Positions 7,419 to 47,987 of a stretch of 64,000 bases of DNA are shown piece after piece (the first letter of the stretch is position 1; every line of letters begins with the position of its first letter). Below the pieces are notes generated by a model. The model was given only the letters and a program-made list of their open reading frames with translations, was not told where the DNA came from and ran no database searches. Source of the stretch: Hyphomicrobiales bacterium. Lineage in GTDB: Bacteria; Pseudomonadota; Alphaproteobacteria; Rhizobiales; JANPGK01. A program made the translations under genes and the position numbers. The DNA lies in assembly GCA_031423895.1 (NCBI GenBank), contig JANPGK010000008.1, forward strand, positions 278-64,277. Direction: 5' to 3'.

Positions 7419-8219
7419 ATGAACCGCATTCTTATCACAACATTACTGGCAACTGTGTGCTTCAGCGCAGCTTTTGCAACGCCACTGCAAGATGGCCTGA
7501 AAGCCATTGATGCCAAGGATTACCCCAAAGCCAGCAAGCTATTGGCAGAAGCTTTTGAAAAGGGCGAGCCAGATGCCGCATTTTATATGGGGCGATTGTT
7601 AGAGGTGGGGATTGATGGCAAAGCCGACCCACAAGCGGCTGTGGCAATGTATGCGGCGGGCGCTGCCAAAAACAGTGCGATGGCCAAAAACCGCCTTGGC
7701 GTTCTGCACATGGAAGGCACAGGTGTGTTGCAAGATTATGAGCAAGGCAAAAAGCTCATTTGTGAAGCCGCAGAAGCGGGTGACGCCAATGCGCAGTTCA
7801 ATTGTGGTGCGCTCTATGATCAAGGCAAAGGCGTGACCAAAGACACAAAAAAAGCCATGGATTGGTATAAAAAATCAGCTGAAAAAGGCAATATTGCGGC
7901 CAAAAATAGCCTCGGAATTATTTATGCTGATGGTGCGGAAAAAGACACCACAAAGGCATTCCAAGTCTGGCAGCAAACCGCCGCTGTTGGCAATCCATTT
8001 GGTTTATTTCGTTTGGGAGATGCCTATGGGCGCGGTGTTGGCACTCCTAAAGACCTTGTGAAGGCGCATGCATATCTCAATCTCGCTTCTGCACGCGGTG
8101 TGAATGAAGCACAGGCCATTCGTGCGGAGCTTGAAAAGCAACTCACACCTGAACAAATTACCCAAGCCCAGCAAATCGCCCGCAGCTGGAAACCAGTGGA
8201 GGATAAGGGAAAGAAGTGA
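7419..8219 (+). CDS. secreted Sel1-repeat (TPR-like) protein
   Basis: Signal peptide MNRILITTLLATVCFSAAFA. Contains repeated Sel1 units (AFYMGRLLEVG, NRLGVLHMEGTGV, QFNCGALYDQGKGV, AMDWYKKSAEKGN, NSLGIIYADG). Confidence 0.85.
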   Translation: MNRILITTLLATVCFSAAFATPLQDGLKAIDAKDYPKASKLLAEAFEKGEPDAAFYMGRLLEVGIDGKADPQAAVAMYAAGAAKNSAMAKNRLGVLHMEGTGVLQDYEQGKKLICEAAEAGDANAQFNCGALYDQGKGVTKDTKKAMDWYKKSAEKGNIAAKNSLGIIYADGAEKDTTKAFQVWQQTAAVGNPFGLFRLGDAYGRGVGTPKDLVKAHAYLNLASARGVNEAQAIRAELEKQLTPEQITQAQQIARSWKPVEDKGKK

Positions 8220-8296
8220 GAAAAAACGCGAAAATTAATGAGTTCTGAGCCTAAGCAATCCACGTGCATGTGGATTGCAACAGCAGCACATTCTTG

Positions 8297-8947
8297 CTAT
8301 TTGCCTTGTAACTGCTGCACAGCTGTGGTTAGCGCCGCGCCTTGATGCTTCAATAGCCATGAGCCCGACACCAGCACATTTGCGCCTGCCGCTACGCACT
8401 GTGCGCCTGTGATGTCGTTCACGCCGCCATCCACCTCAATATCAATTGCCCGATTTCCAATCATCCCGCGCAGTGCGGCAATTTTGGGCAATACCGATGG
8501 AATAAACGCTTGCCCACCAAAGCCAGGGTTTACGGTCATGGCTAAGATCAAGTCCACGTCGTCTAACACATGAGCCACGGCGCTTTCGGGAGTGGCCGGG
8601 TTGAGGGCAACACCGGCTTTTTTGCCCAGTTCTCGTACCATTTGCAGGGCGCGGTTCAAATGCGGTGTGGCCTCGGCATGCACGGTGATGATATCGGCAC
8701 CCGCCGCCGCAAATTCCGCAATGTAAGGCTCAACAGGCGAGATCATCAAATGCACATCAAACTGCATTTTTGTATGCGGGCGCAGCGCCTTCAAAATGGC
8801 AGAGCCATAGCTGATGTTCGGCACAAAATGGCCATCCATAATGTCGAAATGCAGCCATGGGCAGCCAGCCGCTTCCAACCGCTTAACATCGGCCAACAGA
8901 TTGCTGAAATCGGCAGCCAATAGGGATGGGGAAATGATAATGCTCAT
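8297..8947 (-). CDS. rpe: ribulose-phosphate 3-epimerase
   Basis: PSLLAADFSNLLADVKRLEAAGCPWLHFDIMDGHFVPNISYG and a full-length match to the Rpe pattern. Confidence 0.95.
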   Translation of the reverse strand: MSIIISPSLLAADFSNLLADVKRLEAAGCPWLHFDIMDGHFVPNISYGSAILKALRPHTKMQFDVHLMISPVEPYIAEFAAAGADIITVHAEATPHLNRALQMVRELGKKAGVALNPATPESAVAHVLDDVDLILAMTVNPGFGGQAFIPSVLPKIAALRGMIGNRAIDIEVDGGVNDITGAQCVAAGANVLVSGSWLLKHQGAALTTAVQQLQGK

Positions 8948-8957
8948 TTGAAACTTC

Positions 8958-11327
8958 CTATAGCGGCGGCGCGGCTTTTTGTCCTACCGATTGCGACACT
9001 TTTGTTTCGCCCAATGTGCGCAAATTCACGCGGAACATAATATCATGTGTTGGCACATCCACAATATTGCGCACGCGGGTGCCTTTATATTCTACCGATG
9101 CGGTGGTGCATTCATCTTGATAGGTGATGCCCATATATTCGCTGATGCGCTTATTGCTCTCTAAATTATGGTATGCCCCGCCATAAACCGACCATTGATC
9201 GGTGAGTTTATAGCGCAAATGTGCGAACAGCGCTTGATCATAAGTGTAATTGCCAAGCAATTCTTGCGGCGCTACATTCAAATACCCTAGATTAGCGGTC
9301 AGTGGGCCAAAATTACCCGACACATCAAACGCACCGCGCTGCATGGCAAATGTCTCTTTATCAAAGCGCATGCGCGCCGAGAATTTTAGCGTTTCATTGG
9401 GTTGGAACGAGAGGCGGCTGACATAATCCGACGTGTGGCTTTGCAAGCCAGAATCAAACCCAACCCGCAGCAAATCTTGTGTGCCATAGGAATTGCGCCC
9501 CATCACATGGAAGGATTCTCCGATCATCGCACCAATATTCATACCGTTATTCATTAGCAATGAATATTGCACGCCTGCATTCACGCGCGTGCCGCCTTCC
9601 ATGCGGTCATACCCTGAGAATTTATTGGTATCGAACAGGTTGGAATCGTCAAAAATAAAGCTTTGCGAATCTTCATTTGGTAATGAGCCAATGCGGCGCT
9701 CATTGGGGCGCACCACAGCTTGCACAATTGGTTCAATAATTTGCGTGCCAATATCGGACGCGCTGATGAACGGATAGCGATATTCCATGCCAAATGCGGG
9801 CATGCCGCGCAATGTGACAGCAGGTTCGTTGCGCAGTGGGTAGGGCAAAACGGCGTCATATGCAGCGTTAGAATCAACCTCGTAACGCACCAAATCGCTG
9901 CGCAGTGAGGCAAATGGCATCCAGACTTGCCCCAGAGGATCAATAAAATTCTGCTTCCAGCCCAATTGCGTGCTCAGTCGTGTGGAATTGCCTGGCATAC
10001 CATAAATGAAATTATACGCGCCCGTAGATGTGGTGCGTGCGGCATAATCGAGGCCATTGCGGGTGACGCTGGTGAAGTTTGTATCAAATGAGAATTGCCC
10101 GCCGATCAACTTTGGCAGCGAGAACACCGTGGAATAATCCACAACAGGGTGAACAAGCGGGAAGTAGCGGTCGACATCGGCACCAGAGAGCCCTGTGAAC
10201 TTCATCAATCGAGCGTCAAAATAACTGTGCTCACCCATGCCGCGCAAAAACACTTCCGATGTCAGCTCGGTATCAGGCCCAAGGCGATAATCGCGCAAAT
10301 AGCGGCGGTCGCTCAACGTGGTGCCATTCCAGCCCCATTGCCAATTTTGGTTGATATTGAATAGGCCAGAGGTGCTCACCGCACCGCGCCATTCACGATT
10401 GCCAGGGTAGCGCATGGCTTCAGGGTCGAGCTGATAAATGCCGCTGGCGCGCACCGCATATTCGCCCGTTTCAAACCGCTGGCGCCATTCCGTTTTCATA
10501 TGCAGCCCTTGGCGGCTGGTGATCATCGGCGTGATGGTGGCATCGTAATCGGGCGCAAGGTTCAAATAATAGGGTGCAGAAATAAACGCACCCAGCGCTG
10601 TTTTATAGCCATACACAGGGTGAAGCCAGCCAGAGCGGCGGCGTACGGTTGGGTCGGGCGCAGTGAAAAACGGAAAATAGCCAACGGGAAAGCCCCATAG
10701 TTCCAAGCGCGCATCGTGATAATACACAGTGCGCTCGGTTTTATTGTGAATCACCTTGGCCGACTTCACCTGCCACAGCGGCGGCTTTGATGGGTCGTCC
10801 TTGCACGGCTCGCACGCAGTATACACACCCTTAGTATATTCGGTGAGGTTGCCATCTTGCCGCTCCGCCCGCTGCGCCGCAAAATGGGTGCGATCAACAG
10901 GGTTGTCCGACTTCATGGCATTGATGAAGCCTTTTTGGAAGTTTTGGGTGATATCGGCATCATTGGCGTAAATCACTTGACCATTGGGCTCGATCAACTT
11001 CACATTGCCCACCGCCACTACGCGCTTGGTTTCGCGGTAAAATGTGATGGTGTCTGCCAAAACGGTGTGTCCTTGGCGATACACTTGCGCCGCGCCGCGT
11101 GCCACCAATGTGTTGGTGTCTTTATTATTGATCAGCTCATCAGCTTCCACCAACATTTCATCGGATGCAGGGTCTTTTTTGGGTTGATCGTCGCTCAAAA
11201 CAGCATTCAGGGCATTTGCCGCATGTGCGCTTGACGCATTCAATATGCTGCCACCACACAGCACAGCCAGCCCCAGCGCAAAACGCCAAGATACTGTGCT
11301 CAATAGGGATGCCCACGATAAACGCAT
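8958..11327 (-). CDS. lptD: LPS-assembly outer-membrane protein LptD
   Basis: 789 aa with a signal peptide, an OstA-like N-terminal domain and a large beta-barrel. It lies downstream of an LptF/G permease gene, as in other alphaproteobacteria. Confidence 0.9.
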   Translation of the reverse strand: MRLSWASLLSTVSWRFALGLAVLCGGSILNASSAHAANALNAVLSDDQPKKDPASDEMLVEADELINNKDTNTLVARGAAQVYRQGHTVLADTITFYRETKRVVAVGNVKLIEPNGQVIYANDADITQNFQKGFINAMKSDNPVDRTHFAAQRAERQDGNLTEYTKGVYTACEPCKDDPSKPPLWQVKSAKVIHNKTERTVYYHDARLELWGFPVGYFPFFTAPDPTVRRRSGWLHPVYGYKTALGAFISAPYYLNLAPDYDATITPMITSRQGLHMKTEWRQRFETGEYAVRASGIYQLDPEAMRYPGNREWRGAVSTSGLFNINQNWQWGWNGTTLSDRRYLRDYRLGPDTELTSEVFLRGMGEHSYFDARLMKFTGLSGADVDRYFPLVHPVVDYSTVFSLPKLIGGQFSFDTNFTSVTRNGLDYAARTTSTGAYNFIYGMPGNSTRLSTQLGWKQNFIDPLGQVWMPFASLRSDLVRYEVDSNAAYDAVLPYPLRNEPAVTLRGMPAFGMEYRYPFISASDIGTQIIEPIVQAVVRPNERRIGSLPNEDSQSFIFDDSNLFDTNKFSGYDRMEGGTRVNAGVQYSLLMNNGMNIGAMIGESFHVMGRNSYGTQDLLRVGFDSGLQSHTSDYVSRLSFQPNETLKFSARMRFDKETFAMQRGAFDVSGNFGPLTANLGYLNVAPQELLGNYTYDQALFAHLRYKLTDQWSVYGGAYHNLESNKRISEYMGITYQDECTTASVEYKGTRVRNIVDVPTHDIMFRVNLRTLGETKVSQSVGQKAAPPL

Positions 11328-11421
11328 GCCCTTGGTTAACTGCTTTTTAACAGTTTGTCACGCCCGATTGCCACGAAATATGCGCTTGATTCCCAACAAA
11401 GTTAATGAAATGTGAATATCG

Positions 11422-12561
11422 TTAACGCTTAGGGCTTGCCTGCACTTCTGTGCGTTGGGGCCTTTTTGGTAGGATGTGCATACGTTTCCAGCCCAAAAGT
11501 GCGAAAATACTTACCAGCAACACGACAATCGGCACGCCATAGCCTAAAAACACCCCTGTCATCGAGCGTGCGGCCATGCCCGATGCCGCAAAGCCAAAAA
11601 TCCGTAAGCTCAGCGCAATCCCCACTGCGAGCAACAAAATTTGCAAGCGATTCTGCCGCGTGGTGCGCGCTTTGCCCATAAAGGCCAGCGCTAGCAATGG
11701 CATCACAAACGCATAAAGCGGCGCGATGAACCGATCATGCAGTTCGGCACGAAATCGCCCAACCATAAACCGTGAAACTTCATCTGTGCCTGTGGGCGCC
11801 ATCAATTCCGACGTGCGGCGCTCGCGCGGTTTATAATTCAGCTTGGCTTTGTCGGAGGTAATATCAGACAAATCAATGGCATAACGCACAAATTGCACCT
11901 GCGATTCCTTCCCATCGGGCGCATTACGATACAACATCCCGTTATCCATGATCAAAAAGCTACCATTGGCGTTTTTGACAATCTGCCCCGCTTCGGCAAA
12001 ATAGCTGGTGGTAAGGTTCACATCGCGTTTATCTTGCAAAAATATCCCCGAAAGCGTGCCGCTGGGCGCGCGCGCGTGCAGGTGAAACACCACGCCTTCA
12101 TCCAGCGTGAGAAATTGCCCTGGCCGCACCGCATTGGTGATCAAATCCGCCCGCACAGCGCTCAAGTAATGCCGCAATTCCCGCTGGGCGCTGGGGCTCA
12201 CCTCAAGGCTCATCAATGCCACAAATGCCGCGATCAAGCTTCCCAACACAACAAATGGCTGCGCCAACCGCCATGGCGAAGCGCCACTGGCCACCATCAC
12301 CACCCATTCACTATCCGCCTGAAATTTATTCAACGCCGAAAGACACGCAATAAACAGCGCAACGGGCAAAATAATCATCAAAATGGTGGGCATAGTGAGC
12401 CACGTAAGGGTGAACAATAGCTCGAGCGATTGCCCTTTATTGGTCACCAAATCCAAATCGCGCAGGGCTTGACTCACCCAAATAATACTCACCAACACGC
12501 CCAAAATCGACATGAATGTAAGCGCCGCCTGCGTGAAGATATAGCGAAAGAGAAGTGACAC
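11422..12561 (-). CDS. LPS export ABC transporter permease, LptF/LptG (YjgP/YjgQ) family
   Basis: N-terminal LFRYIFTQ, six predicted TM segments flanking a periplasmic domain, and RFRAELHDRFIAPLYAFV resembling the LptF RARAELNWR region. Adjacent to lptD. Confidence 0.8.
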   Translation of the reverse strand: MSLLFRYIFTQAALTFMSILGVLVSIIWVSQALRDLDLVTNKGQSLELLFTLTWLTMPTILMIILPVALFIACLSALNKFQADSEWVVMVASGASPWRLAQPFVVLGSLIAAFVALMSLEVSPSAQRELRHYLSAVRADLITNAVRPGQFLTLDEGVVFHLHARAPSGTLSGIFLQDKRDVNLTTSYFAEAGQIVKNANGSFLIMDNGMLYRNAPDGKESQVQFVRYAIDLSDITSDKAKLNYKPRERRTSELMAPTGTDEVSRFMVGRFRAELHDRFIAPLYAFVMPLLALAFMGKARTTRQNRLQILLLAVGIALSLRIFGFAASGMAARSMTGVFLGYGVPIVVLLVSIFALLGWKRMHILPKRPQRTEVQASPKR

Positions 12562-12731
12562 GAGTTTGCCTTTTTTGTCACCACATCGTTAAACAGGAAT
12601 GGCCCATCGCGCAAGTGGTGATACGATGATTTCAACGTAAGGACACCATATTTGCTATCTAAAGACGTAAGTTACTATTCTTAATAAACATGACTAATTT
12701 TCAAATAAGTTAATGAATGTTAATATTATAA

Positions 12732-13298
12732 ATGAAAATGATGAAAGGAAAAGCCATGTCAAAAATACCTTCGATTTCTGCGAGTGATCTTGTTGGTGGG
12801 ATATATCAACCAAATAACAGTGATGAGGCAGGAAAATCAGCAGCATTAAGTGAATGGCGTCGTGCTCAAATTCTTACACAGCGTCAGAATGCGGATGGAG
12901 CAGGCGTGAATGGCAAGAAAGATAATCAGATTACACCAGATGAAGCGCGCAGTTATGTCAGCACAACCAAAGCAGAGGCTCACAATTTAGCGCAACGGCT
13001 TGGGATTTCAATGCCGAAAAGCAACGATTTGAGTAGCAAAGAAATGACTCTAAGAGCGGCTCGCGAACATAAACAAGATCAGTCAACATTCGATCAGTCT
13101 TTTACCAAAGGAGAATATGACAGAACAAGCCTAAGATTTGCTTATAATAATTACAAATATGGAGATCTAAGCAAAGATGAAGCAAATAAAATATATGCAT
13201 ATCTTGTCGATGGGGATTTAAAAAATCCGCAAGATGTGATTGGGCAATTTGGGGACGACATTCCCAATATGGCCAAATTACAAACCAAGTATGATTAA
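12732..13298 (+). CDS. hypothetical protein, AT-rich orphan (no TM, no recognised domain)
   Basis: Long ORF in an AT-rich block preceded by an AT-rich promoter-like region. The likelier start is the ATG at 12756, after GAAAGGAAAA. No family recognised. Confidence 0.5.
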   Translation: MKMMKGKAMSKIPSISASDLVGGIYQPNNSDEAGKSAALSEWRRAQILTQRQNADGAGVNGKKDNQITPDEARSYVSTTKAEAHNLAQRLGISMPKSNDLSSKEMTLRAAREHKQDQSTFDQSFTKGEYDRTSLRFAYNNYKYGDLSKDEANKIYAYLVDGDLKNPQDVIGQFGDDIPNMAKLQTKYD

Positions 13299-13388
13299 GG
13301 AGGTGCGCATCAAGATTCTTTAGCGCTTTACGCCCGCAAAAAAGCCCGCTAAGGCTTGGCTATGAAAAATCAGCTGAAAGAATTATTG

Positions 13389-14105
13389 ATGCGCCCATCC
13401 CTTCGTACGCCAGAACAAATGCGCCCCATTTCCATTGAAAAATCGGTCACACGTTATGCTGAGGGCTCGTGTTTGGTGAAATTTGGTAACACCCATGTGT
13501 TAGTGACAGCCAGCGTAGAAGAAAAAGTGCCACCCCATGTGCGCGGCACTGGCAAAGGCTGGGTGACCGCGGAATATGGCATGCTACCCCGCGCCACACA
13601 TGAGCGCATGCGCCGCGAATCCGCCGCTGGCAAACAATCGGGCCGCACGGTGGAAATTCAACGCCTTATTGGCCGCTCATTGCGCACGGTGGTGGATTTG
13701 AACGCACTTGGCGAACGCCAAATTTTGGTGGATTGTGATGTATTGCAAGCGGATGGCGGCACGCGCACCGCCGCAATTTCTGGCGCATGGGTGGCGCTGC
13801 ATGAGGCCTTCACGTGGATGGAAGCCCGCAAAATGGTGAAATCGAACCCGCTGAAGGATCATCTGGCCGCCGTTTCTTGCGGTATATACAACGGCACGCC
13901 GGTGTTGGATCTCGATTATTTAGAGGATTCCGCCGCGCAAACCGATGCAAACTTTGTGCTCACTGGTTCAGGTAATATCATCGAAGTGCAAGGCACTGCC
14001 GAGAAGGACCCATTCTCTGAAGCGGAATTTTTGCAATTGCTGGGCCTTGCCCGCATCGGCGCTGCAGAAATTATCGCAGCGCAAAAAGCGGCGGTGGGGG
14101 TGTAA
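13389..14105 (+). CDS. rph: ribonuclease PH
   Basis: [18 protein letters not shown]...[21 protein letters not shown]...[15 protein letters not shown]. The start was moved to the conserved MRP (238 aa). Confidence 0.95.
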
Positions 14106-14207
14106 TTTAATCAATCGAACGCAGAAGGTTATTCTGGTGCTCGTGATAAGTTATATTCGTGTCCTTAACCTTCCACTCTATACGACCATTTGATGACCGT
14201 CCGTTGA

Positions 14208-15029
14208 TCATACATGCCGCTGTACTTGGGCTAGTAAACTCAACGTCTTCTTGAAATATCCCTTTTTTGTATTTGGATCAAGCATAATTTTATTGCTTTC
14301 ATAAAGTTGATCCATTTTTTTTGCTGTACTGGGATTGTAGTCTCGCTTTGCGAGCCAACGCGGCTGAGCTATTGAGCCTTTGAGAACAATAAATATACCA
14401 TTTATTTCTTGTGCGTGGGCAACTAAATTTTGTTTTTTGTTTGTAAGTACAAAAATTGGTGATGCTTCATTTGATATATTTTTGTTTTGATTACTATCAT
14501 TAACATTAGAAACTTGAATTTTTTCTCGGAAATAATCTAACCCAAGAACTGGCAATATCAATTGAATTTGAGAAATAAAATATTCCATATCCGCAATATC
14601 GGCCTCTGGAAGCAAATCATACACTGGTGCGGTGGAGTTTATAATTTTTACAACTCCCGACTTCTGAACAATATTTATAAGTTTGCTTTCTAAAAAACGT
14701 GCGTGAGATTTGGTAATATTCTGATCTTTACTCGTGATCACACATGTCTTTTCCCAAAAATCTTTCGATGAATCACGGTTGTGCTGTGTTAAGCGAGCAC
14801 CCACATTGTCGCTTTCACCAATATATACTTGCGTTGCACCAGAACCTTCAGTATCATTTCCAGTAAGCAAATAAACACCAGTCTTTTTCATTTCTGGGCG
14901 CAAAATTAGCTCAGCAATTTTACTACGTGGTGAACACAATACGTGCCCTGTCCAATTCATAATCTCAGCTGTAAGAATCCCATTTGGTGATCCATCTGCC
15001 AGAAATATTTTGATGGATTTACCTTTCAC
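14208..15029 (-). CDS. GIY-YIG nuclease family protein with a split C-terminal DUF4357 domain (0-frame product; -1 frame continues to 14107)
   Basis: GIY-YIG core VYLLTG...QVYIGESDNVGARLTQH...FWEKTCVI...KSHARFLESKLI. The conserved DUF4357 tail (FTSPSTAA...NGRIEWK) is encoded in the -1 frame downstream of nt 14262. AT-rich. Confidence 0.75.
   Translation of the reverse strand: MKGKSIKIFLADGSPNGILTAEIMNWTGHVLCSPRSKIAELILRPEMKKTGVYLLTGNDTEGSGATQVYIGESDNVGARLTQHNRDSSKDFWEKTCVITSKDQNITKSHARFLESKLINIVQKSGVVKIINSTAPVYDLLPEADIADMEYFISQIQLILPVLGLDYFREKIQVSNVNDSNQNKNISNEASPIFVLTNKKQNLVAHAQEINGIFIVLKGSIAQPRWLAKRDYNPSTAKKMDQLYESNKIMLDPNTKKGYFKKTLSLLAQVQRHV
14262..14268 (-). other. A AAA AAG heptamer at the frame change of the GIY-YIG/DUF4357 gene (candidate -1 slippery site or homopolymer indel)
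   Basis: The minus strand reads aca aaa aag gga in the 0 frame. The -1 frame then reads GGG ATA TTT CAA GAA GAC GTT GAG TTT ACT AGC CCA AGT and onward to a TAA at 14107-14109. Confidence 0.5.
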
Positions 15030-15039
15030 AATTTCCCCC

Positions 15040-16704
<1,665 letters not shown>

Positions 16705-16901
16705 GTGCTGCGCCTCATTGATATATGGTGCACATGGCTAGAGGAAATTGCGGGGAAGCGCAAGATAGATTGAGCGGATATACGAATACGCAGGCGTGTA
16801 AGCCTATAGTTGAATTGTTGCACAGCGCATAAAATGATAAATTGAGGCCTGCTAATGCTATATTGGAGGCCTTTTTGGGCAAAATTGGCGCAACAACGCA
16901 T

Positions 16902-17900
16902 ATGAAAGAAACGACACCTCATCACGGTGGTGGGGCATTTAAGCAGGCTGTGCATAAGGCTAAAGCGCCAACTGCGCACAAGGATCCATTGCATTCATTG
17001 TTCAGCAGGCTCGCAACAAGCAGTGCGCAGCAAAAAAAGTTCAATATAGAAAAAATTCAGGCCGTTAACGCACTCAAAATTACATCGACACCTGATGGCC
17101 GCACCCCTAAAAGCTTTTCGTTTGTGCTGTCATACTCAAAGGATAAGACATCAAGGGCACAGTTTGAGAATTTGAACGCAAAAACAACACCCTATTTTTA
17201 TCATGACATTAGAGCATCAGAAAAATCTGATATGGTCTATGTTTTTAAGAAAACGCTCAAAGAGCATATTCTGAAATATGGCCTGCCTTTAGAAGAAGTT
17301 ATGTTTGGAGCGCATGGCGGTTCAATGAAGGTTTATGAGGAAACGCCTGTAAACAATAATAGCGATCAATCTGAAAACGTAGAAAATATGATTGATGCGA
17401 TTAAAGAGCTGCAGTCAGAATTTGGCGGAATGCAGATTACTAAGAACATTGTAATCCCAGGATGTCAGATTTTTACACGCCTAAGTGAAAAAAATGTACA
17501 TTACTTACATACATCAGCGCAGCAATTAAAATCAAAAATAGCCTCAGATACAATTGTAGAATGGGTCTGTTCTCAAAATTTAGGTCGCTTCTATGAATTT
17601 ACAGGTGATCCCTGTAAGCCCTTACAAATAAAGCGTATTTACAAACGAGATGACATATTGGCCCCGCTGGGGGCAGGATTCTCAGAGTTATTTTTGAACA
17701 CCAGAAAAGATACAGAGTGGATCAAATTTTACAATAATCACCGCGAATACAAAAATACAGATTTTGAAAAAGGTCAGAAATTGCACAAAGCATATGATGA
17801 ATGGGGTAAAAATAAACGCATTGAGGATGCAAAAAAGGCTAAAAAAGCACAAGAGCGATTTGAAGCTGTAAACTGGTCTAAAGCGGGGCTGCCTTTCTAG
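16902..17900 (+). CDS. hypothetical protein, AT-rich orphan with a caspase-like (clan CD-type) His-Gly...Cys arrangement
   Basis: The start was moved to MKETTPHH. EVMFGAHGGS (His codon 17313-17315) and NIVIPGCQIF (Cys codon 17463-17465) lie 50 residues apart, each after a hydrophobic strand. There is no confident family match. Confidence 0.45.
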   Translation: MKETTPHHGGGAFKQAVHKAKAPTAHKDPLHSLFSRLATSSAQQKKFNIEKIQAVNALKITSTPDGRTPKSFSFVLSYSKDKTSRAQFENLNAKTTPYFYHDIRASEKSDMVYVFKKTLKEHILKYGLPLEEVMFGAHGGSMKVYEETPVNNNSDQSENVENMIDAIKELQSEFGGMQITKNIVIPGCQIFTRLSEKNVHYLHTSAQQLKSKIASDTIVEWVCSQNLGRFYEFTGDPCKPLQIKRIYKRDDILAPLGAGFSELFLNTRKDTEWIKFYNNHREYKNTDFEKGQKLHKAYDEWGKNKRIEDAKKAKKAQERFEAVNWSKAGLPF

Positions 17901-47163: not shown

Positions 47164-47673
47164 ATGATCAACCCCACCAAATCAGAGCCGTATCGTTATT
47201 GTTATTGGGGAGATGTCGCACAAAATGCCGATGGCACAATCTCTGAAGAGGGCACAATATTTGATGGTATTAAGGATTTGATCGTGATTGAACCCGCGAC
47301 GGGAAAAATTTATGTTCAAAAAGGGTCTCAAAAACCAGGTGGGAAAATTGACGATATTAATATTGATCCTACGATTGCCTATGAAACCACGTTTGACAAT
47401 ATTGAATATAAAATGCTGCTCGGTAAAACAAGTTTTTACAGTATGATCGATTGGGATGGTGATCAAAAAATGGATTATTGTACATATATGCCAGAAGAGC
47501 ATTTGTTTTTAACGAAATTATCGGATGCCAATTCTAAATTACCTAAGATTTATGAATTTGAGAACGAAGGTGACTCTAAAGAATTAAATGTGAATGATGA
47601 TGCTGAATGGGATATTGTGTTTCGGCGCGGCACAAGTTTATTAACGCTTATAAAGCATTATCATACGCAATAA
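47164..47673 (+). CDS. hypothetical protein, AT-rich orphan inserted between the EIIA(Man) and HPr genes
   Basis: 169 aa with RBS CAGGAGGATAAAATG. No recognised domain and no TM segment. Its stop is 20 nt before the HPr start. Confidence 0.5.
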   Translation: MINPTKSEPYRYCYWGDVAQNADGTISEEGTIFDGIKDLIVIEPATGKIYVQKGSQKPGGKIDDINIDPTIAYETTFDNIEYKMLLGKTSFYSMIDWDGDQKMDYCTYMPEEHLFLTKLSDANSKLPKIYEFENEGDSKELNVNDDAEWDIVFRRGTSLLTLIKHYHTQ

Positions 47674-47693
47674 GTGACAGAAAGCACCAGTTA

Positions 47694-47987
47694 ATGGCCG
47701 AAATTCCTGTAGATGCGCTCACCACAACGCTCCATATTAAAAATGAGCGGGGGCTGCACGCCCGCGCCTCGGCCAAATTTGTGCGCTGTGTGGAGCAGTT
47801 CCCTGAAGCAATAGTGTATGTCACCCGCGCGGGCGAAACCGTTGGTGGCCGCTCTATCATGGGGTTGATGTTGCTGGCCGCAGGCGTTGGCACTACCATT
47901 GAGGTGGCCACCCATGGCGAACAAGCGCAAGAAGCGCTCGAGGCCATCACTGCACTGGTGGATGATTTGTTTGGTGAGGGGGAGTGA
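47694..47987 (+). CDS. ptsH: HPr-family phosphocarrier protein
   Basis: LHIKNERGLHARASAKFV (active-site His) and GGRSIMGLMLLAAGVGT (Ser46 region). 97 aa after moving the start to MAEIP. Confidence 0.9.
   Translation: MAEIPVDALTTTLHIKNERGLHARASAKFVRCVEQFPEAIVYVTRAGETVGGRSIMGLMLLAAGVGTTIEVATHGEQAQEALEAITALVDDLFGEGE

Follow-up and report, generated by a model that had tools for sequence, protein, structure and literature searches.

A PDC-S14-type candidate defence gene divided between two reading frames in a Hyphomicrobiales bacterium, probably by a one-base deletion

The slippery heptamer A_AAA_AAG is the site of −1 frameshifting in dnaX and in the IS3/IS911 insertion elements, where it is accompanied by an upstream Shine-Dalgarno-like stimulator and/or, at 5-9 nt downstream, by a hairpin or pseudoknot. 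The dnaX shift yields a shortened protein, whereas in the IS elements the shift fuses two functional open reading frames (ORFs) at a domain boundary. Slippery heptamers without stimulators raise frameshifting in E. coli to 2.1-10 times a background of about 0.055%, a yield below about 0.5% (PMC4066793), and slippage on AAG depends on a lack of tRNA-Lys(CUU) (Tsuchihashi and Brown 1992, as cited in PMC4066793). Low-level shifting may also compensate for mutation. 'Savior' indels, for example in the G-run of herpesvirus thymidine kinase, are one-base indels in shift-prone homopolymers from which a trickle of product is expected (PMC5009743), and AAA-AAA in the pDEST17 vector rescues 1-nt deletions (PMC1851650).

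The gene described here resembles the proteins that PADLOC groups as PDC-S14. The role of this family in defence is putative: PADLOC lists it only as a 'phage defence candidate' single-gene system, and the parts of the literature naming PDC-S14 that were available contained no experimental test of phage defence. Its members are labelled 'GIY-YIG nuclease family protein' or 'DUF4357 domain-containing protein' by NCBI, and have three parts, a GIY-YIG-like nuclease core being preceded by an N-terminal domain and followed by a C-terminal domain of DUF4357/RAMA-like type. The accessory domain DUF4357 also occurs in fusion with GmrSD Type IV restriction enzymes, with McrB-like proteins and with T5orf172 (PMC4619093, PMC5714182, PMC11090510). 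Type IV enzymes such as GmrSD and the McrB-like proteins share the PF14267 domain with the present gene, in which it is attached to a GIY-YIG-like core.

We examined this gene within a window of 64,000 nt, the whole stretch of DNA that was analysed (Table 1). The frame-0 protein ends in ...NTKKGYFKKTLSLLAQVQRHV, and the −1 frame from the heptamer onward reads KKGIFQEDVEFTSPSTAACMINGRSSNGRIEWKVKDTNITYHEHQNNLLRSID, closing with a TAA at 14109-14107. When the frames are joined, the trans-frame product reads ...NTKKGIFQEDVEF... across the junction, with GIFQEDVEFTSPSTAACMINGR as the junction peptide versus GYFK / TLSLLAQVQR in frame 0. The initial annotation had located the frame-0 stop and the heptamer, in its X XXY YYZ phase, as we find them. 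It also gave the end of the −1 frame correctly, but placed that end 2 nt from the rph stop by start-to-end counting; only base 14106 lies between the joined-frame TAA and the last base of the convergent rph stop, 14105. Its statement that the frame changes exactly at the heptamer can be kept only as 'near the heptamer', since stop codons and homology confine the change to about 14277-14253, with the conserved F259 just downstream of the heptamer.

Table 1. Features of the two-frame locus (window coordinates)
Feature	Position	Strand	Remarks
Ancestral PDC-S14 family gene	14107..15029	minus	307 codons with both frames joined
Frame-0 ORF, 273 aa	14208..15029	minus	GTG start, TGA at 14210-14208; N-terminal domain, GIY-YIG-like core, first half of C-terminal domain and 18 out-of-frame residues
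AAAAAAG heptamer	14268-14262	minus	phased A_AAA_AAG (aca|aaa|aag) in frame 0
A6G3 tract	AAAAAAG plus GG (14261-14260)	minus	most likely site of the lost base
−1-frame continuation, 52 codons	14107..14261	minus	conserved DUF4357 core F.EDV.F.SPS....GR.SNGR..WK
−1-frame TGA	14278..14280	minus	9 nt upstream of heptamer; upstream limit of the possible frame-change stretch
ettA stop codon and 10-nt spacer	15030..15042	minus	Shine-Dalgarno-like GAGGGGGA before GTG at 15029

As the initial annotation had stated, the gene is AT-rich and lies between rph and ettA: its GC content is 0.32-0.42, against about 0.55 in the two neighbours. The AT-rich body matches the extent of the joined ORF almost to the base, ending at the joined-frame stop. 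No flanking direct repeats of note were found around the gene, and no terminators of note, including between it and the convergent rph. The frame-0 TGA overlaps a −1-frame ATG (ATGA, 14208-14211, minus strand), and a 34-aa tail ORF (14211..14107) could arise from termination-reinitiation at this point; the overlap is probably due to chance, a Met being natural at that position of the family.

The identity of the gene was examined using PADLOC and Pfam profiles. The joined 307-aa product matched the PADLOC PDC-S14 profile PDLC04923 with an E value of 3.6e-112 and 372.6 bits (residues 1-303 against profile positions 21-314 of 320), matched four more PADLOC PDC-S14 models, and could be aligned along its entire length with 75 homologues about 310 aa long. 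It thus resembles PDC-S14 over its whole length and in all three parts of the architecture. This full-length match was obtained only with the frames joined, and the locus does not provide it as one intact ORF, as the frame-0 product stops at 273 aa. The annotated reading of one conserved DUF4357 domain encoded across two frames agrees with Pfam, in which PF14267 scored 52.8 bits on the joined protein (cut-off 38.4; residues 252-290, across the junction) and 54.3 bits on the −1-frame tail alone, while DUF4357 had no match in the 273-aa product. The SPS motif and the conserved Gly and Trp residues that had been noticed in the tail are likewise present (S267-P268-S269, G277-R278, N281-G282-R283 and W286); the second conserved Trp, W298, is replaced by His.

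The assignment of the core to GIY-YIG nucleases, also proposed initially, is upheld by hallmark residues and not by the Pfam score. PF01541 reached 18.2 bits on the gene product, under the gathering cut-off of 22.6, and gave weak matches (E up to 0.01, 4.3e-5 at best) to 64 of the 76 aligned family proteins. However, G51-V-Y53, Y69-I-G71, R79, E114 and N131 are invariant across these 76 sequences and are present in the window protein. By analogy with the I-TevI/UvrC pattern, Y53, Y69/G71, R79, E114 and N131 may have GIY-YIG-type catalytic roles. The RAMA profile also matched 19 of the 76 members. A sequence search of the PDB with the family profile returned a chance match only, and Foldseek against the PDB returned nothing significant.

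The genomic context of homologues was also inspected. Integrase, D5 primase, DUF4011 helicase, GmrSD and AAA_13 genes are found among their neighbours, and copies of the family occur on 52 plasmids and in 2 phage records, which together fit a mobile defence-type gene. One intact homologue lies in an island-like context with an integrase, a D5_N primase, a 1836-aa DUF4011/AAA_11/AAA_12 helicase and an adjoining GmrSD gene, and another adjoins an AAA_13 ATPase, a Tle1-like lipase and an HTH gene (loci L086 1-12951 and L085). In contrast, the window copy stands alone between housekeeping genes with no visible island. It is also at most 57% identical to known members, the value for its nearest homologue. 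The gene is probably a divergent, horizontally acquired copy of PDC-S14.

The neighbourhood itself holds further observations. The nearest relatives of the window RNase PH (88%, 76% and 74% identical; loci L082, L083 and L084) show the usual hrcA / rph-rdgB(-hemN) arrangement. The window rph (13356-14105) has neither hrcA nor rdgB as neighbour, the local order being rearranged in this divergent alphaproteobacterial lineage. Because the rph neighbourhood of the relatives differs, their synteny says nothing on the rph/ettA junction, at which the initial annotation had placed a single-gene insertion. Two more AT-rich ORFs flank the rph / ettA block, at 12732-13298 (188 aa) and 16842-17900 (352 aa), with GC of about 0.37-0.40 and no Pfam match; the latter holds two in-phase A_AAA_AAG heptamers. 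Further away, positions 1703-2161 of the window hold a gene of GC 0.26 for a SUKH-1 / SMI1-KNR4 protein. SUKH-1 / SMI1-KNR4 proteins are of an immunity-protein type that belongs to polymorphic toxin systems.

We then asked how the family is encoded elsewhere. The 273-aa protein is a singleton among about 15 billion proteins and is present in both NCBI and Logan. Among the best 120 database proteins, the other 119 carry PF14267 in one frame and measure 295-409 aa, mostly about 310. Homologous loci were collected as the best 80 from species-representative genomes and the best 80 from metagenomes. In 159 of these 160 loci the gene was recovered as a single full-length tblastn segment, the lone exception being cut by a contig end; this sample of the best 80 per collection favours intact copies, and the window's own genome is absent from the genome set. 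Of the plasmid copies, 45 of 52 were covered to at least 80% in one place. The T-K-K-G position aligns with a variable loop just before the F.EDV.F.SPS core, and A_AAA_AAG was present there in none of the 160 loci. Within the nine codons before the conserved Phe, one of the 160 loci has an in-phase slippery heptamer (T_TTA_AAG) and one has an out-of-phase A6 run. An exact-pattern scan of metagenome contigs, with 6 or 7 bases allowed in the tract, gave no match. The window copy is thus in two frames, unlike every other copy examined, and on these sequences the two-frame layout is not a conserved design of the family. The programmed −1 frameshifting that had been proposed initially is not supported by this comparison with best-hit homologues, whose outcome is the one that the initial annotation had itself named as refuting it.

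The position of the break in the protein was assessed using an AlphaFold model built from the 76-sequence alignment (mean pLDDT 87.8). Residues 190-300 have block-mean pLDDT values of 88-97, the frame break falls in a loop between predicted strands 248-250 and 257-259, and the PADLOC profiles PDC-S57 and DUF3780 match residues 176-292 as a single stretch. These predictions suggest that residues 190-307 may fold as a single domain, in which case the frame-0 product would carry half of this segment followed by 18 nonsense residues. From comparison with the systems described above, known programmed frameshifts do not appear to give such a two-isoform layout: a shift at this site would repair a cut in the middle of a domain.

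Conservation differs between the parts of the gene. In the frame-0 product, none of the 50 columns of residues 1-189 with at least 95% conservation has changed, the joined product agrees with the family at 55 of the 56 columns with at least 98% conservation (the exception being Y235), and the −1-frame tail keeps 11 of 11 invariant family columns and is free of stop codons. However, of the 17 tail columns with at least 90% conservation, 3 are lost (A270T, A273C and W298H), compared with a mean of 0.27 and a maximum of 2 such losses in the same tail of the 75 intact homologues. Another radical change in this C-terminal domain is Y235T, and the loss of Y235, A270, A273 and W298 sets the window copy apart from PDC-S14; in residues 1-189, five changes at conserved columns are all conservative. 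This is a weak sign that the C-terminal domain may be under relaxed constraint, and the lineage is long, so that the changes cannot be dated. That all 11 invariant residues are kept in an open tail implies that the deletion is recent or that the tail is still expressed, and the deletion is probably not ancient.

The heptamer itself is less unusual than it may seem. The 56 ORFs of the window hold 80 in-phase X_XXY_YYZ heptamers (Y = A or T). Besides the one considered here, these comprise three further in-phase copies of A_AAA_AAG in unbroken genes (17033, 17831 and 39260) and 76 other in-phase slippery heptamers, so the in-phase heptamer at this site is not above chance expectation. The same gene has five homopolymer runs of at least six bases, and an in-phase A_AAA_AAA within one of them, an A8 run (14322-14315, minus strand), leaves the frame intact. 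Adding back one A or one G to the A6G3 tract joins the frames and gives TKKGIF, similar to the SKKGIF that a homologue (P0012) encodes as TCG AAA AAG GGG ATC TTT. Both ACA AAA AAA GGG minus one A and ACA AAA AAG GGG minus one G produce the observed ACA AAA AAG GGA. A one-base loss in Lys-Lys-Gly codons therefore yields the phased heptamer automatically, and the phasing is not independent evidence for recoding.

The signals that accompany programmed sites were also sought. No Shine-Dalgarno-like sequence occurs in the 40 nt upstream of the heptamer, and no Rfam frameshift element matched, even at E up to 10. The downstream stimulatory RNA structure for which the initial annotation had suggested a search did not emerge on folding: shuffled sequences fold as well as the 151 nt around the site (z −0.9), and the sole downstream hairpin (−12.9 kcal/mol) is weak, is interrupted by internal loops and starts 16 nt after the heptamer, compared with the usual 5-9 nt. 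The 60 nt downstream do fold better than 96% of the gene's 60-nt windows; GC also rises toward the 3' end. The tRNA content of the 64-kb window is one tRNA-Arg only. The site thus has the heptamer of dnaX and IS3/IS911 in the correct phase, with the −1 frame here as a C-terminal extension, but it differs from them in having no upstream stimulator, no hairpin or pseudoknot at the proper distance, no Rfam match and no conservation among the best-hit homologues, none of which is close. With no stimulators here, full-length protein would be expected at most as an incidental, sub-percent trickle.

These observations bear on several explanations. It is very unlikely that the heptamer serves programmed or compensatory −1 frameshifting that fixes the ratio of the 273-aa and 307-aa proteins, for instance so that little of a toxic defence nuclease is made. 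The phased A_AAA_AAG does lie at the only place where the frames can join, the −1 frame opens 9 nt upstream, every invariant residue of the tail is kept, the downstream 60 nt fold comparatively well, and compensatory shifting over savior indels is a recognised category (PMC5009743). However, neither the heptamer nor the two-frame layout is conserved in the best 160 loci and 119 proteins, the phase follows automatically from a deletion in Lys-Lys-Gly codons, the ordinary genes of the window are rich in comparable heptamers, and the hairpin distance, the fold score, the missing Shine-Dalgarno-like stimulator and the Rfam result all point the other way. In addition, the break cuts a confidently modelled, profile-continuous segment and not an inter-domain linker, and heptamers without stimulators yield little in E. 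coli (PMC4066793). As in the savior cases, a one-base indel in a shift-prone homopolymer leads one to expect a trickle, but here there is no sign that the trickle is selected or matters. A variant, which we consider very improbable, is that the broken frame is kept on purpose as a 'pseudo-pseudogene', in which the deletion in the A_AAA_AAG tract makes a GIY-YIG defence nuclease, perhaps toxic to its own cell, depend on frameshifting and so limits it to a very low dose, or in which changes of tract length toggle it; if true, this would be a case of defence-nuclease dose control by compensatory frameshifting.

Phase variation via homopolymer tracts is frequent in defence and restriction genes, and slipped-strand mispairing could toggle this gene between ON (A7) and OFF (A6), the assembly having caught the OFF state. 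The well-preserved tail and the five runs of at least six bases in the gene are compatible with such a switch, which we nevertheless regard as decidedly unlikely: an A tract of 6-7 nt is short for efficient slippage, no tract is found at this site in the 160 homologous loci, the longer A8 run of the same gene is in frame, and the Logan contig passes the site unbroken, which speaks weakly against a mixed population. An artefact of sequencing or assembly, in which the true tract would be one base longer (seven A or four G) and the gene an intact, single-frame PDC-S14, is also unlikely. Homopolymers are the classic place for consensus indels, the tail is open and fully homologous with its 11 invariant residues in place, and the AT-rich stretch extends precisely to the joined-frame stop, 1 nt short of rph. 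Against this, an independently assembled Logan contig (SRR20217181) is 100% identical to window positions 8208-15156 (6949 bp, about 6.9 kb), A6 run included, although the NCBI and Logan assemblies may derive from the same reads. Of the 92 homopolymer runs of at least six bases inside the 56 ORFs, the other 91 leave their frames open, including four 8-mers, one of which is this gene's A8. No other split gene was seen in this set of ORFs, and spot checks of suspicious ORF pairs gave none either. Nor would one expect a copy in full working order to carry radical replacements at W298, Y235, A270 and A273. The sequencing error that the initial annotation had listed as an alternative is accordingly disfavored by the Logan agreement and the 91 intact runs. 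One such ORF pair, the overlap of 47164 and 47607 (47164-47987, plus strand), had been considered as a second frameshift and was rejected, as the second ORF is that of an ordinary HPr (PF00381), lengthened in frame at its upstream end, and Pfam matches nothing in the first.

The best-supported explanation is the homopolymer deletion that had been named initially as another alternative, with either A or G as the lost base. An acquired PDC-S14-type gene has probably suffered a genuine loss of 1 nt from its A/G tract, which leaves a truncated 273-aa product, with read-through at sub-percent levels at most. An ancestral ACA AAA AAA GGG or ACA AAA AAG GGG would have lost one base, and normal translation would then give a protein in which the nuclease core is kept, the conserved half of the C-terminal domain is missing and the last 18 residues are nonsense. 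The phased A_AAA_AAG would be a by-product of where in the Lys-Lys-Gly stretch the deletion fell and not an evolved signal. We infer a real mutation, as opposed to a read error, and a gene that is inactivated or crippled. A counterpoint is that few heptamers shift as readily in E. coli as this one, so that some full-length protein may plausibly be made and could be of consequence.

These findings also carry a caution for recoding screens, as a 1-nt deletion in Lys-Lys codons alone creates a phased A_AAA_AAG, and phasing on its own does not count as evidence of recoding. The appropriate annotation for the locus is a frameshifted (pseudo)gene of the PDC-S14 / GIY-YIG-DUF4357 family; neither a 273-aa protein nor a recoding event should be entered. 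Beyond annotation its importance is small, the frameshift being an ordinary one in a gene of a little-studied family of defence candidates.
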